From contig CBDIIB010000005.1 in NCBI GenBank assembly GCA_965279525.1, positions 1,120,001-1,184,000 of the forward strand: a stretch of 64,000 nt of DNA, in the 5' to 3' direction. This document shows, one piece after another, positions 43,183 through 48,928 of the stretch. This stretch comes from Tagaea sp. (GTDB taxonomy: Bacteria; Pseudomonadota; Alphaproteobacteria; CACIAM-22H2). Made by a program: the position numbers and the translations under genes. Every line of letters starts with the position of its first letter. Within the stretch, counting starts at the first letter, position 1. Below the pieces are notes generated by a model. That model was not told the DNA's origin, searched no databases, and worked only from the letters and a program-made list of their open reading frames with translations.

Positions 43183-43251
43183 TGGAAACGGACAAAGATA
43201 TTGCCCGAAATCCTATATTGATGCCCGAAATAATTAATAACATATCGAAAT
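43183..43251 (+). repeat. Transposon end with 20-bp-period repeats (candidate TnsB sites)
   Basis: TGGAAACGGACAAAGATATTG, then CGAAAT at 43206, 43226 and 43246 (TGCCCGAAAT twice). Confidence 0.65.
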
Positions 43252-43282
43252 ATAATGGCTAAATAATCGATCTATTAGACAT

Positions 43283-45151
43283 TTGTCTCCTGAACTTAAT
43301 TGTCGAGTCGATTTTTCGAACGTTTTCAGTATTCTTCCGATAGTTGTGTCCTGCGAGATCGGAACGGGGCTGGCATTGCTGAAGTATAAGGTCGATTGGA
43401 ACGGTCGCACTGGCAAGCGGTGGGAGCTGATGTTCTTGGGCAAGATTTATTCAATGCCCAAAGGCGGTTCTCAGCACATGGTCGACGCGGTGTTTTCGAG
43501 CATAGACGCCCGAAGGGGCCAATATGAAATTCACACCAAACGAATAGGAATTGGCGAACTTCCGTACTTAATTCCTGGCAGCATTTGGGTAAGCAAGATT
43601 CGGGCGGGCGAACACTTCATCCAGATCATTAATCCTGTCGAGTTTGGCGAAAAGGAAATCAACACACTCAATTTGTTCAATGCGGAAACTGTTCCCCAGA
43701 TCGAACTGGCGGATTTCGAAAATTTCAAAGACCCCCTGAGGCTCTTTCGATCCCTCAGGGCCTATTCACGGATGCCAGTGTTCAGTATCGACATTAAGAA
43801 CAATCCGAATTTCAAGATTTTCATTCCGCCTATAGAGCTCTTTCGATTTACGTTCGCGAAGACAACTCGTCTTGCCGTCAAAATTACGCATCGGACGATG
43901 GATGATCTGGCCACTCACGTGCGGTCTCAGGATATCGACGGCAAACGGGTCGTAACGCTGAGATCGTCGGTTCCAAAATCGAGATCACTGACGACCGATG
44001 AGGCTCAAGCTCTTGCAACGGCCTATGACACCGGTCTGGCTTCAGAGTTTTCGCAAAGCGGTTGGAGCGCCGTTCGGCGATCTGTCGATGAGTACGGCGA
44101 ACCGATTAAAGATGGGGAATTTCTCAAAGGCAAATTTTTCTGGAAGACCGGCGATAAGTTTCGGTCGATTGGCCACATGTTGGATCTTGGAAATAAAGTG
44201 TATGCGTTTTTCGTGCAGGGGATACTCGAAACGAATCATCACCCTTCGTTCAACAGGATCGATATTCTCGAGTGCCAAAGCATCAAGAGGCAAACTGACT
44301 ACGATCAACGCAAGAACATGTATCCGGGTGCCGTTACTGCTACCATCGGCGAAGAGATCGAATCGGTAGAAGGGCCCAAGACGGCGCGCGCTTCGGCGAA
44401 ATATACAGTTCAGCTTCCGGAGCCAGAATTGGGGGTTGCTAAGATCGAGGTCTTAAAGATCGAAGAATCAACCGACGACTACGAAACCGACAACAAGAAG
44501 GTTATCGGAGGAGATAAGCCGAAAGCATCTTCGACAGGAGAGGCGGTAGGCAATAACGGAAGGATCTCTGGGTTGGAAGTAGATCAGGCTGATAATCAGG
44601 AATTCGATTCTTTGCGGGAAATTAAAATTCTCTGGGATGCTGCCCTGAAGATACAAGAGGATTTGAAATTCGAAGTTTGCTCGGTGAAATCGGATAGACC
44701 CGCCGCATCGGGCGTAAGGCGCGGCGATAAGACCGCTCAACTATGTCAGTTCTATCCCAAGTCCGGTGAAGCGCGGCACAAATGGTCGACGAAAAGGATT
44801 CGGGGGAAAACGTTCGTTCGTCGCGCACTATGCGTGCAGTTCAAAAATAATAAAAAATTTGCGTACGCGATCGAGGTTGAGCGGTTTTCTGAGAACGACA
44901 ATTATTGCCTTTTCACGTTCAGTTTGAACAGCCAGGCTGAGATCAAACCCGAAATGCTAGATCAATTTCTCTTAATTCTTGCGAACTCGGAAAGTCGCCG
45001 ACTCGCAAAAGATTTGCCGAACAGCCTCGGATTGACGTCACTCAAATTTCCCCATTACGAGACACGGCAAAGCGTAGATGGTCTTGCCAACGCAATTGGC
45101 CCATTCCTTTTCAACAATCTGGATGGACTGATGTTGGATATACGGAAGTGA
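43283..45151 (+). CDS. TnsE-like Tn7 target-selection protein
   Basis: Colinear motif similarity to E. coli Tn7 TnsE as recalled: IFIPPIELFRFTF, acidic linker, SSTGE, RRALCVQF..AYAIEVE, FPH..DGLANAI; true start may be 43376. Confidence 0.65.
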   Translation: MSPELNCRVDFSNVFSILPIVVSCEIGTGLALLKYKVDWNGRTGKRWELMFLGKIYSMPKGGSQHMVDAVFSSIDARRGQYEIHTKRIGIGELPYLIPGSIWVSKIRAGEHFIQIINPVEFGEKEINTLNLFNAETVPQIELADFENFKDPLRLFRSLRAYSRMPVFSIDIKNNPNFKIFIPPIELFRFTFAKTTRLAVKITHRTMDDLATHVRSQDIDGKRVVTLRSSVPKSRSLTTDEAQALATAYDTGLASEFSQSGWSAVRRSVDEYGEPIKDGEFLKGKFFWKTGDKFRSIGHMLDLGNKVYAFFVQGILETNHHPSFNRIDILECQSIKRQTDYDQRKNMYPGAVTATIGEEIESVEGPKTARASAKYTVQLPEPELGVAKIEVLKIEESTDDYETDNKKVIGGDKPKASSTGEAVGNNGRISGLEVDQADNQEFDSLREIKILWDAALKIQEDLKFEVCSVKSDRPAASGVRRGDKTAQLCQFYPKSGEARHKWSTKRIRGKTFVRRALCVQFKNNKKFAYAIEVERFSENDNYCLFTFSLNSQAEIKPEMLDQFLLILANSESRRLAKDLPNSLGLTSLKFPHYETRQSVDGLANAIGPFLFNNLDGLMLDIRK

Positions 45152-45394: not shown

Positions 45395-45440
45395 AATCAA
45401 TGCCTTGACTCTTTCGGCGAGTTGAGAACATATAGCGAAC
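45395..45440 (+). promoter_or_regulatory. SOS (LexA) box GAAC-N7-GAAC overlapping a promoter, with an IHF-consensus site
   Basis: GAACATATAGCGAAC at 45426-45440; TTGACT at 45405-45410; AATCAATGCCTTG at 45395-45407 matches WATCAANNNNTTR. Confidence 0.75.
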
Positions 45441-45484
45441 AATCAGATCTAAATTGGATGCCCCCTCATTGTCGGGAGCCAAAA

Positions 45485-45760
45485 GTGACCGTGACCTGCC
45501 AGACCTGCCGCAACTGGGAACCGAATGAAACCGGCACTCGCGGCCTGTGCCGATATGCGCCGCCGCGCAGCCAGATCGTCCTCTTTGGGTCGGACGACTT
45601 CGAGCTCAAAGCAGTCTGGGCAACGACCTCCCGCGAGGATCGCTGCGGAGCCTGGGTCAGCACACACCTACTCAATCGGGCGTCCAGTTGGCCTCCCTCA
45701 GGCACCAAACACCCCTTCAAAGAGAGGGCGCATGACAAGCCCTCCGATATGGAGAAGTAG
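45485..45760 (+). CDS. Small Cys-rich hypothetical protein (phage-type motif)
   Basis: CQTCRNW...GLCRYAPP...WATT..DRCGAW; stop lies 1 bp before the ATPase ATG; start uncertain. Confidence 0.6.
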   Translation: MTVTCQTCRNWEPNETGTRGLCRYAPPRSQIVLFGSDDFELKAVWATTSREDRCGAWVSTHLLNRASSWPPSGTKHPFKERAHDKPSDMEK

Positions 45761-45761
45761 C

Positions 45762-47138
45762 ATGTACATCCCGCACTACGAATCCGACTTCGTGAGGTTT
45801 GCCTACTGGGTCCGCCCGCCCAGCATCAATGAAATTGGCATCATGCGAGCCCGCCACTTTGGGCGGGCGCTCATGGACCACCCGTCACTGGCCGGCATCG
45901 AGGTATTTGACGACGAGGCCAAGACGCTGGAGCGGGCGCTCGAGTTCCGCAAAGCCAATCGCCCAGGACTCTATATCGCCTGCCTTGTCTATCTGGCGCT
46001 CCAGAACAACCCAATCGCTTGCCTCACCCTGGCAGGGATCCTCATGCAGCGCGCGCAGTTCAAGGACCCGCCGAACCAGCGCATGCTCCTCCTGCGGGCG
46101 ACCGGCTGGCTCAAAGCGGCAGATTCCATGAAATTCAATGAGAACTTTGGCTTCCCGCAAGAAGCGCTCTCGCGGATCGAGAAGGCCTCGAGTGCGGCCG
46201 ACAATGGGAAAATCTCCGAAATACGCCGTCAGATCGAGCGAAACGAGCGGAGAGTGACCCTCATCGAGAGCGTACTCCCGAAGTGGAAGTCAGAGAACGG
46301 AAGCTCCGACAAGTATCGGTGCCTGACGGAGCCCCTCCAGCTTCAGGGAGACCTGACTCCGAACCATGCCAAAGCGCTGCTCGATGCCCTTCGATCCGAA
46401 TATCCGTGGGCGGACGACCTGCTCACGGACATCGAGACCGCATTGACCCTGTCTATTGCCTCCAATAAGCCGTGGCTGTCGCTACCGCCCCTGCTACTGG
46501 TCGGGTCACCTGGAATCGGAAAGACCCGCTTCGCCCGGCGCCTGGCGGAACTCACCGGTGTGCCGATCCGGATCGTCAATACCGGCGGCTCGACTGACAA
46601 TCGGGATTTCTCCGGGACAGCGCGCGGCTGGAACACAGCCCATCCGGCCCGCGTCATCGAGATACTTCGTGAGACGGAAGTGGCAAACCCGATCGTCCTG
46701 CTCGACGAGATCGACAAAGCAGGTGGTGGCTATCGGAATGGCCGGATCACGGCAACGCTTCTGACGATGCTGGAGCCCGAGACACGGGCCCGCTTCTACG
46801 ACGAAGCTCTAACCACGAATGTCGACCTCTCCTACGTGAACTGGATCCTCACAGCGAATGACGTCCAGCTCCTCGGACGGCCGCTTTTGTCACGTCTACG
46901 GGTCATCCATATGCCGCCACCACCGGTCTCCGCGGCGCGGCAAATCGTCGAGACAGTACTCAAGGACCTGGCAGCTCGCTATGGCTGGCCGGAAGGGGCA
47001 ATGCCGACGCTGGAGCCTGAAGTCCACACGGCACTCATTAATGCAATGTCCAAAGGTGCGTCCCCGCGGAACATCTCTGTGATGGCCGAGCAGGTCCTGG
47101 CGATCGAGCTGAAGTGGCGACGTACTGCTCTGAACTGA
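45762..47138 (+). CDS. Lon-like AAA+ ATPase without a protease domain
   Basis: LLLVGSPGIGKT (Walker A), NPIVLLDEIDKA (Walker B), LLTMLEPE, VDLSYVNWILTAN, PLLSRL; ends shortly after the lid; alternative start 45732. Confidence 0.88.
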   Translation: MYIPHYESDFVRFAYWVRPPSINEIGIMRARHFGRALMDHPSLAGIEVFDDEAKTLERALEFRKANRPGLYIACLVYLALQNNPIACLTLAGILMQRAQFKDPPNQRMLLLRATGWLKAADSMKFNENFGFPQEALSRIEKASSAADNGKISEIRRQIERNERRVTLIESVLPKWKSENGSSDKYRCLTEPLQLQGDLTPNHAKALLDALRSEYPWADDLLTDIETALTLSIASNKPWLSLPPLLLVGSPGIGKTRFARRLAELTGVPIRIVNTGGSTDNRDFSGTARGWNTAHPARVIEILRETEVANPIVLLDEIDKAGGGYRNGRITATLLTMLEPETRARFYDEALTTNVDLSYVNWILTANDVQLLGRPLLSRLRVIHMPPPPVSAARQIVETVLKDLAARYGWPEGAMPTLEPEVHTALINAMSKGASPRNISVMAEQVLAIELKWRRTALN

Positions 47139-47195
47139 CGCAACTCATGTGTGCTGCCGCACATTTGCGATCGGCATGAAGATTGGAGACTCAGT

Positions 47196-47804
47196 ATGCT
47201 CAAACGCCCGCTTCCAACGCGCGACTGCGGCGCCGGCTGGAACAAACTGATCGATACGCTCATTGCCGATCTTGATGTCATAACGGGTAGGCGAAAAGTC
47301 GAGGTCGTGCAAATCAAGGAGAAGTTCGGTGCATTGCGATTCTACCTCGCGGGCAAAACTAAGCTGCCGTCCGAACTTCTGGGCCGCATACAAGCGCGCA
47401 TCGGCGAAGCAGAAAGAAGTTCCGCCGTTATCTGCGAAGAATGTGGAGAACCGGGGATGATCCATACGTGGGACGGCAGAGGGTACTACTGCGCCCGCTG
47501 CCAGCGACATGCGCGGGAGATCGCGCGAACGAACCTCACGAATTATCGCGGGCAAGATTGGAATCTCGACCGAAACTGGCGTCTGGTCGATAAAAGCGGG
47601 GTCGCACTTTCTGAGAAAATCATTAGTGGATTGGACATGGCCGCAGCTCAGTCCATTGCACAAATCGCGGAGGACTCGAAACGCCTAGCGGACGGGATGG
47701 CCAACGCCATCCGACAGAGGGCTGGGATAGTTCCGAATGTGCGAGTCCACATGCCGGCGGACGCAGCACATCATTGGCAAGCCGCGCGATTCCTAGCGGA
47801 ATAG
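47196..47804 (+). CDS. Hypothetical protein with QIKEKFGALRFY motif and CxxC...CxxC
   Basis: CGAGW, VVQIKEKFGALRFYL, CEECG, CARC; GGAGA RBS. Confidence 0.75.
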   Translation: MLKRPLPTRDCGAGWNKLIDTLIADLDVITGRRKVEVVQIKEKFGALRFYLAGKTKLPSELLGRIQARIGEAERSSAVICEECGEPGMIHTWDGRGYYCARCQRHAREIARTNLTNYRGQDWNLDRNWRLVDKSGVALSEKIISGLDMAAAQSIAQIAEDSKRLADGMANAIRQRAGIVPNVRVHMPADAAHHWQAARFLAE

Positions 47805-47915
47805 CCCCACATGGTCGGATTCAAGTGATCAGCACGGAGTCATTGTAAGCGCAATCAAGCGGACGGAACGACGAATTGGGCCGAGCAACGACTAAGGCAT
47901 TCAGAAGAGATTCGC

Positions 47916-48587
47916 ATGGTCATCATCGATATAGAAGTTTCATCGTTGGTGGACGGATACCCGATCGAGATTGGCTGGGCACGCTCAGACGGAGAATGTC
48001 GTGCCTATCTAATAAGGCCGACCGATGAACTGATCGCTCATACGAAATGGGATCCTGTTTCCCAGAGCATCCATGGCATATCACGTGAGCTTCTTGAGCA
48101 GCGGGGAATGCCAATCGACGAGGTTGTCGCAAATCTCAATAGGGATCTCGACGGTGAGAGAATCCTTTCGGATGCCCCTTCACATGATTGGCAATGGCTG
48201 ATGGTCCTCCTCGAGTTCTCGAGTGTCGAGCGGTTTACCTTTGAAATGCTGAAAATGCCGGTTGATTCTCTCTTGCTACGCGAAGCAAATGAGCACGGCA
48301 TAAAAGGTACAGATCTTCGCTATGTGCTCGAAAAGCAGGAGCGAGCGCATGTTCATGCAGCGGCACACGATGCGGCAAGCTGGGCTGCGGCCGTAGAGGC
48401 CATTTCGGCTGCGAGTCGCGGCGATACCGCCGCTGTTGCCAGTATATTTGAGACCTGGCGGTCTCGTGCAACTGCAGCAGCACCGTGGCGGGAGAGTTCA
48501 AGTGGCAAAGAAAAAGGTGGCCAAAAGAGTGACACGAAGGAGCAAGCCCGCAAGGCAGAAACCCAAAATGAGCGGAAGGACGCTTAA
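47916..48587 (+). CDS. DEDDh (DnaQ-like) 3'-5' exonuclease
   Basis: IDIE (ExoI), PIEIGW, IHGI, SDAPSHD (ExoII), H.A..DA (ExoIII). Confidence 0.82.
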   Translation: MVIIDIEVSSLVDGYPIEIGWARSDGECRAYLIRPTDELIAHTKWDPVSQSIHGISRELLEQRGMPIDEVVANLNRDLDGERILSDAPSHDWQWLMVLLEFSSVERFTFEMLKMPVDSLLLREANEHGIKGTDLRYVLEKQERAHVHAAAHDAASWAAAVEAISAASRGDTAAVASIFETWRSRATAAAPWRESSSGKEKGGQKSDTKEQARKAETQNERKDA

Positions 48588-48639
48588 TGCCGAGAAGGGA
48601 TTCGGCTAATGGCTGCTCGAAACCGCCGACACACCGGAT

Positions 48640-48928
48640 ACTGTTCGAGAACTACTTTGCCCGGTGATCTCGAAGTCAAGATCGGCTGCTTGGTCGATCA
48701 CTACAACCACTGCCGATACCACGAAAGCCTCGGCAACCTCACGCTGACCGACGCCCACACGAGGCGCGGGCAGGCCATTCTGGAAAGGAGGGAAGCGATC
48801 AAGCGCAGGACCATCGAGTACCGCCGCTTGCTGCACCGGCAAGCGACCGCCTAAACTGCCAACCCAGATGTACCGAAGCCTCTGTTAGCAGCAGCCTCAA
48901 ACTGCCCCGATTGTTCTGCCGACGGACA
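48640..48928 (+). mobile_element. IS3/IS481-type transposase C-terminal remnant with terminal repeat
   Basis: LPGDLE..I..VDHYNH.RYHESLGNLT..RGQAILERREAIKRRTIE; end sequence ...TTCTGCCGACGGACA. Confidence 0.8.

Follow-up and report, generated by a model that had tools for sequence, protein, structure and literature searches.

Does the gene run that follows an SOS-type promoter near one end of a Tn7-like transposon of Tagaea sp. form a conserved unit, and, if so, what could that unit do for the element carrying it? The run occupies positions 45395-48587 of the stretch analysed here (the window: 64,000 nucleotides (nt), positions 1,120,001 to 1,184,000 of contig CBDIIB010000005.1), and an initial annotation had read it as a LexA-controlled operon of four genes. 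The layout was found as described: TTGACT is followed by GAACATATAGCGAAC, a perfect GAAC-N7-GAAC LexA box over the expected -10 region, and by four co-oriented open reading frames (ORFs) of 91, 458, 202 and 223 amino acids (aa) with intergenic gaps of 1, 57 and 111 nt. The conserved unit, however, is not four genes but the TTGAC, the LexA box, a 4-Cys micro-protein and a protease-less LonA-type ATPase, hereafter the cassette:

45405..45410, + strand: -35 element TTGACT; the box starts 15 nt further on, and TTGAC is invariant in 8/8 aligned promoters
45426..45440, + strand: LexA box GAAC-N7-GAAC, over the expected -10 and kept in homologous promoters
45485..45760, + strand: 4-Cys micro-protein (CxxC...C...C), 91 aa, with a GTG start and GGAG upstream; probable HiPIP-like fold (HiPIP, high-potential iron-sulfur protein); cassette core
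45762..47138, + strand: protease-less LonA-type AAA+ ATPase, 458 aa, identified by domain match and invariant motor residues; cassette core

A two-gene cassette behind a LexA box

The Cys ORF lies directly upstream of the ATPase gene at nine loci, of which this genome holds two, four further genomes of the genus hold six and a metagenome contig holds one (a further locus, L001, was excluded from the count as a likely duplicate). The proposed fixed four-gene system did not survive this comparison: the full set was seen only in the window (1/8 loci with a readable downstream side), and a close relative on a groundwater contig lacks the third gene, which encodes a protein with the motif QIKEKFG. 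What the initial annotation had overlooked is that, within the genus, the core of box, Cys ORF and ATPase gene follows Tn7-like elements in a nearly one-to-one manner. Wherever both are assembled, the cassette is at or near the end distal to tnsABC and reads inward, as in the window element, in a second element of the same genome (C5:687537-757059) and in two elements of genome G045, where tnsC follows at a distance of 12-14 kb. Within the second element of this genome, 69.5 kb long, the cassette sits about 260 nt in from the left end. The copy numbers of tnsC and of strong Cys ORFs are equal in four genomes (2/2, 2/2, 2/2 and 1/1). In a comparison of 21 genomes of the genus, five had tnsC, five the Cys ORF, four both and 15 neither (Fisher p 0.004, or 0.011 counting G035; related genomes are not independent observations). 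The two discordant genomes are G031, which has tnsC and no cassette on a contig that stops before the far end of the element, and G033, an assembly of 580 contigs with a cassette and no tnsC; G039 has one additional weak Cys match elsewhere. The cassette is common to two Tn7 families, the TnsB proteins of the two elements in this genome being only 33% identical.

The genes are under purifying selection, with dN/dS of 0.12-0.25 for the Cys gene, 0.07-0.23 for the ATPase gene and 0.10 for the DEDDh exonuclease gene that closes the run. Between the window and genome G040, dS is 1.65-1.80 for all three genes alike, which is consistent with joint inheritance. The cassette ATPases form one clade (support 100/99) nearly confined to one genus. 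A scan of metagenomes yielded 32 loci, chiefly genuine Lon and other AAA proteins, with a single cassette among them. Detached 3' pieces of the ATPase gene were also seen (C5:723286-723477 and L068:12420-12521), in elements that hold a whole copy as well.

The box is the type used by the host, as the initial annotation had held for Alphaproteobacteria: the single lexA gene of this genome has an identical box type 146 nt upstream, so the host uses the GTTC-N7-GTTC/GAAC-N7-GAAC motif. The 4.35-Mb genome has 73 perfect boxes, including 22 intergenic ones by rough gene calls, so that any particular 60-nt promoter window would contain one with a chance of roughly 1 in 300 to 1 in 1000. TTGAC followed by a perfect box was found in six of the nine homologous cassette promoters (five of the eight aligned, plus the ninth). 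Since this conserved box sits over the -10, the cassette is predicted to be repressed by LexA and switched on by DNA damage. The integration host factor (IHF) site that had been noted at the -35 is a true consensus match (45395-45407, sharing its TTG with the -35), but the remaining seven aligned promoters do not retain it at this position. A sigma-70 scan did not call the cassette promoter. Elsewhere in the genome, a near-identical promoter pair with TTGAC and the same LexA box (C5:282540 and C5:1007253) stands ahead of other genes.

With 1,877 representatives, mostly of 60-90 aa (P0137-P0286 among them), the family of the micro-protein is a large one; C4, C7, C21 and C53 are invariant in 126/126 aligned members. 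The probable HiPIP-like fold of the micro-protein had gone unnoticed in the initial annotation. A search with the structure model returned 12 chains at Z of at least 2, and 10 of the 11 listed were HiPIPs or HiPIP-like subunits of glycyl radical enzymes; Z for such chains was low (2.6-4.6), the best match having Z 4.6 with a root-mean-square deviation (rmsd) of 1.8 over 42 aligned residues, and the HiPIP 1isu Z 4.1 with rmsd 1.6 over 43. The Pfam HIPIP profile was matched by 14/126 members at E of at most 0.01, below the Pfam cut-off, and the best Foldseek E was 0.14. The modelled fold thus points to a probable HiPIP-like [4Fe-4S] protein, although the metal may instead be Zn. In the eight cassette ORFs aligned, the first Cys comes within 4-7 residues of the start, which leaves no room for a signal peptide; the exported periplasmic carrier role of classic HiPIPs does not fit. 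The protein would probably act as an adaptor or redox switch of the ATPase.

The ATPase consists of a helical N-domain (about residues 1-165) followed by a three-helix bundle and an AAA+ module (166-458). In the structure model (predicted local distance difference test score 82), residues 166-458 match LonA with Z 18.8 and rmsd 4.0 over 277 aligned residues. K254 (Walker A), W290 (pore loop), D315/E316 (Walker B), N366 (sensor-1), R378 (Arg finger) and R436 (sensor-2) are invariant in 31/31 sequences and align with the Walker motifs, pore-loop Tyr, sensor-1, Arg finger and sensor-2 described for Lon. The Ser-Lys protease domain is absent: the protein ends at residue 458, its match to Lon extends to about Lon residue 563 and breaks off where a protease domain would begin, Lon_C is not matched, and TIGR00763 scores 102.5 bits against a cut-off of 608. 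The call of a protease-less Lon-like ATPase thus holds, whereas a true or frameshifted Lon was ruled out, about 30 full-length homologues measuring 455-469 aa. A complete 800-aa Lon is present in the host, separated from the ATPase by a long branch. The N-domain gave no Pfam match (residues 1-183 in six homologues) and no Atlas match; its presumed Sel1-like look is an impression of ours. Because the motor and pore-loop residues are intact, the protein could well form hexamers and unfold substrates at the expense of ATP.

The host element and the exchangeable neighbours

Outside the core, the element end and the run contain the following features:

43183..43400, + strand: left end of the Tn7-like element, starting with TG; 5-bp target duplication GGCGG inside comM
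43430..45151, + strand: probable distant TnsE (context, outside the cassette), by hhalign; homologues in two other comM elements
47196..47804, + strand: QIKEKFG/Zn-ribbon-like protein, 202 aa; mostly a phage family, accessory insert
47916..48587, + strand: DEDDh 3'-5' exonuclease, 223 aa; optional partner, catalytic residues intact

The assignment of the locus to a Tn7-like element was borne out. The element measures 43,290 bp, splits comM at 43183, has TG...CA ends and carries tnsA, tnsB, tnsC and tniQ at its far end, beyond the window, where the right end is at C5:1206472 (tnsC was named via Pfam TniB, TnsB via homology to Pfam-typed TnsB, tnsA and tniQ by inspection). At the distal end, 43430-45151 probably encodes a TnsE, though a very distant one: the product matched Tn7 TnsE weakly in hhalign (E 0.02; its score was 26.2, whereas 30 shuffles reached 21.5 at most) and weakly in another comparison (E 0.067), three further relatives were found, and Pfam TnsE_C was not matched. 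The second Tn7-like element, the 69.5-kb one with an ATAGA duplication, carries the same cassette and also holds a nitrate reductase operon. It sits just past the 3' end of a gene that a motif suggests to be gyrB-like; parE is a described insertion site for such elements. Beyond the window, the comM element contains two CBASS-like clusters, named by inspection (C5:1194471-1202899), one with a nucleotidyltransferase and a membrane protein and one with a nucleotidyltransferase, E2/E1-like proteins and a patatin. In the comM element of G045 (L069/L158), a QIKEKFG gene comes after umuDC-like genes, and the element also carries an AbiEi/AbiEii pair and two tandem tnsA copies.

The exonuclease call proved sound, as D5, E7, D91, H147 and D152 (D-x-E of ExoI, D of ExoII and H-x4-D of ExoIII) are invariant in 6/6 sequences and the generic DEDDh model of PADLOC was matched with E 5.5e-9. 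The DEDDh gene is a frequent but optional partner. It stands behind the ATPase gene in the window and in G040, and also at three sister loci, on integrative elements, whose ATPases belong to a clade of their own, but six of the eight readable cassettes have none there. In a class-wide sample of 400 other genomes, the DEDDh family was found in at least 17 and the ATPase family in at least 14 (lower bounds, with 8 and 4 candidates scored per genome). Family-wide adjacency of the two was rejected, both families occurring in 4/400 of these genomes and never side by side, the nearest pairs being 26 and 31 kb apart. At L137 (G249), a DEDDh gene of the same family, two calcineurin-like phosphoesterase genes and a Swiss-Army-Knife HAD gene form a row beside an integrase gene, 31 kb from a family ATPase. 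Directly after the DEDDh gene of the window, at 48609-48854, lies an insertion-sequence (IS) remnant (rve_3, E 3e-4), and many loci of the ATPase family are trailed by IS pieces.

The QIKEKFG gene has the loosest place in the run. The groundwater contig joins 47138 to 47916 with 22 other bases between, and the same sequencing run holds the window version too; it therefore represents a close relative without the QIKEKFG gene, which is an insert here. The family was found in 2/50 genomes of the order and 4/401 of the class, adjoining the ATPase gene there only in the window, although it lies within 3-6 kb of it in L006 and G045. It is largely a phage family, with at least 564 viral matches and mostly viral Atlas clusters; its commonest neighbours look, by their motifs, like HAD and calcineurin-like phosphoesterases, and related neighbours were typed. 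At 85 QIKEKFG loci (80 viral) there was one AAA match, a weak one (E 3.6e-7), and no member of the DEDDh or Cys families. On plasmids, a QIKEKFG gene follows a family ATPase gene by 0.07-0.45 kb in at least 4 of 32 records (three Methylobacteriaceae and one Polaromonas) among the matches listed, which were 60 of 80 for the ATPase. No Pfam, PHROG or PDB match of weight was obtained for the protein. The Cys, DEDDh and QIKEKFG families are thus each real associates of the ATPase family without forming a fixed set: the suggested co-occurrence holds for every partner singly, and not for all four together elsewhere.

A possible unfoldase for mobile DNA and its rivals

The wider ATPase family was found in 13/21 genomes of the genus and 15/401 sampled in the class. 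Relatives have tyrosine integrases and relaxases for neighbours and are preceded by a divergent XRE-type gene; small elements of this kind with other ATPase clades (L070-L072, L075-L081, C3:372342 and C4:288763) have a DUF3223 protein encoded upstream, or an 80-aa protein and a DEDDh downstream. Plasmid ATPase genes are followed by metallophosphoesterase genes in Microvirga (next to imuABC), Sphaerotilus and Polaromonas. Two further loci lie in Tn7-like elements of two other families: in G076 a related ATPase gene lies 12 nt upstream of tnsA-B-C-tniQ, and in G228 (L155) a LexA box, a DUF6634 gene and an ATPase gene lie upstream of tnsB-C-tniQ. At three loci of the DUF6634 clade (L152, L154 and L155, in G278 and G228), TTGAC and GTTC-N7-GTTC point at a protease-less Lon ATPase gene, a second case of a LexA box with a small partner and the ATPase. 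SOS control of the family as a whole is unsupported, most of its 45 loci having no TTGAC and box. At some loci, e.g. L143, L145 and L156, a mobile context was not recognised. A phage origin of the ATPase was rejected, with nine weak matches in 50,697 phage records and no DNA match.

What, then, could the cassette do? Our preferred explanation, held tentatively and at somewhat less than even confidence, is that it encodes an SOS-induced unfoldase that clears protein-DNA complexes during mobility of the element, as host ClpX does for Mu and for CRISPR-associated transposons (CAST). LexA would hold the cassette off until DNA damage releases its expression. The products would be a hexameric LonA-type unfoldase without a protease chamber and a small HiPIP-like [4Fe-4S] protein as its adaptor or redox switch. 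The motor would most likely dismantle stable protein-DNA complexes of the element itself, e.g. the post-transposition complex, whereas on integrative elements and plasmids its clients might be integrase or relaxase complexes; the exchangeable downstream genes (DEDDh, calcineurin-like phosphoesterases and QIKEKFG) could serve to clean the freed DNA ends. The initial annotation had named an accessory machine for element mobility as one option, and by analogy this is the one we would keep. In its favour count the nine cassette loci, the place at the end distal to tnsABC, the matching copy numbers of tnsC and Cys ORF, the occurrence in two Tn7 families, the related ATPase genes upstream of tns genes in G076 and G228, the invariant motor residues with their LonA match, and the purifying selection. 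Moreover, CAST integration is boosted by ClpX unfolding in the absence of ClpP (PMC10055298). The stronger proposal, that an Fe-S-gated, SOS-induced, Lon-derived unfoldase is an unrecognised core component of Tn7-like mobility, independent of host ClpX and shared by other proteobacterial elements, taking apart transposition or recombination complexes and passing the DNA ends on to exchangeable end-cleaning enzymes, appears rather unlikely.

Several observations weigh against the unfoldase explanation. L007 has an element end and a cassette with no tns genes nearby, G035 holds clade members without the Cys ORF or the box, and the cassette of this clade lies outside the tns operon. The pore-loop-2 aromatic is not conserved. 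The box is eroded in one sub-clade (3/9 cassettes) in which the genes are intact, and of 45 family loci only nine, one of them doubtful, have TTGAC and a box within 1.3 kb upstream, leaving about 36 without. As the family also occurs on integrase/relaxase elements and plasmids, a client specific to Tn7 could account for only part of it. Defence cargo abounds in the elements (CBASS-like, type I restriction-modification and AbiEii genes). Tn7 and Tn6022 transpose without such a gene, as far as the main text of PMC11014353 goes.

Four other explanations were ranked behind it. The defence cargo just mentioned, the layout of an ATPase with a nuclease, the varying downstream enzymes and the near absence of the family from phage records would all suit a defence or abortive module, in which SOS or phage damage induces an ATPase that senses or unfolds a partner and thereby frees a DEDDh or phosphoesterase effector. 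We consider this improbable, because most readable cassettes lack the DEDDh and the core is thus left without an effector, and because a fixed terminal position and one-to-one tracking with tnsC are unlike exchangeable defence cargo; nor did PADLOC or NCBIfam return a system beyond generic AAA and DEDDh matches, and the anti-phage reading proposed initially gained nothing specific in its support. Still less probable is a modulator of host proteolysis, a protease-less subunit that would mix into or compete with host Lon and so protect transposase or SOS factors or redirect substrates. LonA is indeed the closest match in fold and sequence, Lon limits several transposases, and such a role would suit all classes of mobile element; however, a decoy would not need a fully conserved motor and pore loop, the branch to host Lon is long, and the end-processing neighbours would be left unexplained.

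Damage tolerance in aid of the host, with the unfoldase and an exonuclease or phosphoesterase removing DNA-protein crosslinks or blocked 3' ends and the Fe-S protein sensing oxidative damage, seems about as improbable as the modulator. It draws on LexA control in two clades, on neighbours including imuABC, umuDC-like genes and UvrD, and on the cassette kept in L007 without tns genes, but would not be expected to show a patchy distribution on mobile DNA tied to element ends, or to lack the box at most family loci. Least probable of all is that the cassette merely hitch-hikes, as an ancestral left-end piece inherited with the elements and without an element-specific role. The single, almost genus-restricted clade of cassette ATPases and the occurrence of fragments and broken copies fit this, whereas a dN/dS of 0.07-0.25 at dS up to 1.8, the presence in two unrelated Tn7 families and the kept promoter do not.

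If the unfoldase explanation is right, an element-encoded, protease-free motor would make the completion of transposition and its coupling to SOS directly testable, and the cassette could serve as a matched accessory factor for Tn7-family engineering. Tools built on the Tn7 family are known to be limited at the step in which the post-transposition complex comes apart, and with ClpX the integration of CAST in human cells increased about 100-fold (PMC10055298).

Comparison with known systems

Searches for an existing name agreed with the initial annotation that there is none: PADLOC 2.0 and NCBIfam gave only Walker-A-sized TRIP13/IetA matches and the generic DEDDh model, with no system-specific match. 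In word searches of the main texts of three Tn7 surveys (PMC11014353, PMC10293859 and PMC8649781), 'Lon' and 'SOS' did not occur, nor did 'LexA' in the two searched for it; the supplements of the cargo survey PMC8649781, which lie beyond its main text, may list the family as cargo. A full-text literature search, with most subscription papers outside its reach, found no description of the cassette and no paper on DUF6634. The two-gene core with exchangeable partners is real and conserved and apparently undescribed, and no description was found of a widespread protease-less Lon family on mobile DNA or of this HiPIP-like micro-protein family.

BREX BrxL, IetAS and other defence systems that pair an ATPase with a nuclease share with the cassette an AAA+ ATPase on mobile DNA beside a nuclease; however, none of their models passes, there is no protease partner, and no brx genes were seen near the cassette. 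The Tn6022 family resembles the window element in its comM site, in its 5-bp duplication and in having the tns genes at one end; the candidate TnsE gene of the window element lies at the opposite end, and a distal TnsE is described for Tn6022 (PMC11014353). The cassette, however, is also carried by an element next to a gyrB-like gene. The micro-protein has the four Cys with CxxC-W and C-x-x-W spacing of HiPIPs and of the HiPIP-like BssB/BssC and MasC subunits, and such [4Fe-4S] subunits of glycyl radical enzymes regulate their large partner enzyme (PMC12590467); it differs in its partner, an AAA+ motor, in the missing signal peptide, in its low Z and in a cluster that is predicted.

The ATPase has the three-helix bundle and AAA+ module of LonA protease, with Walker A/B, the pore-loop-1 aromatic, sensor-1, the Arg finger and sensor-2, whereas it is shorter at 458 aa, has an apparently different helical N-domain and no Ser-Lys protease domain, and is found on mobile elements alongside a complete host Lon. 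By this comparison it is not a member of the Lon protease family, and on the best reading it would be ClpX-like in action. What it would share with ClpX, which acts on Mu, Tn7 and CAST post-transposition complexes (PMC10055298), is the proposed ATP-driven unfolding without proteolysis; ClpX, however, is host-encoded and belongs to another AAA+ clade, whereas the cassette motor is encoded by the element, preceded by a LexA box and paired with a probable Fe-S micro-protein.

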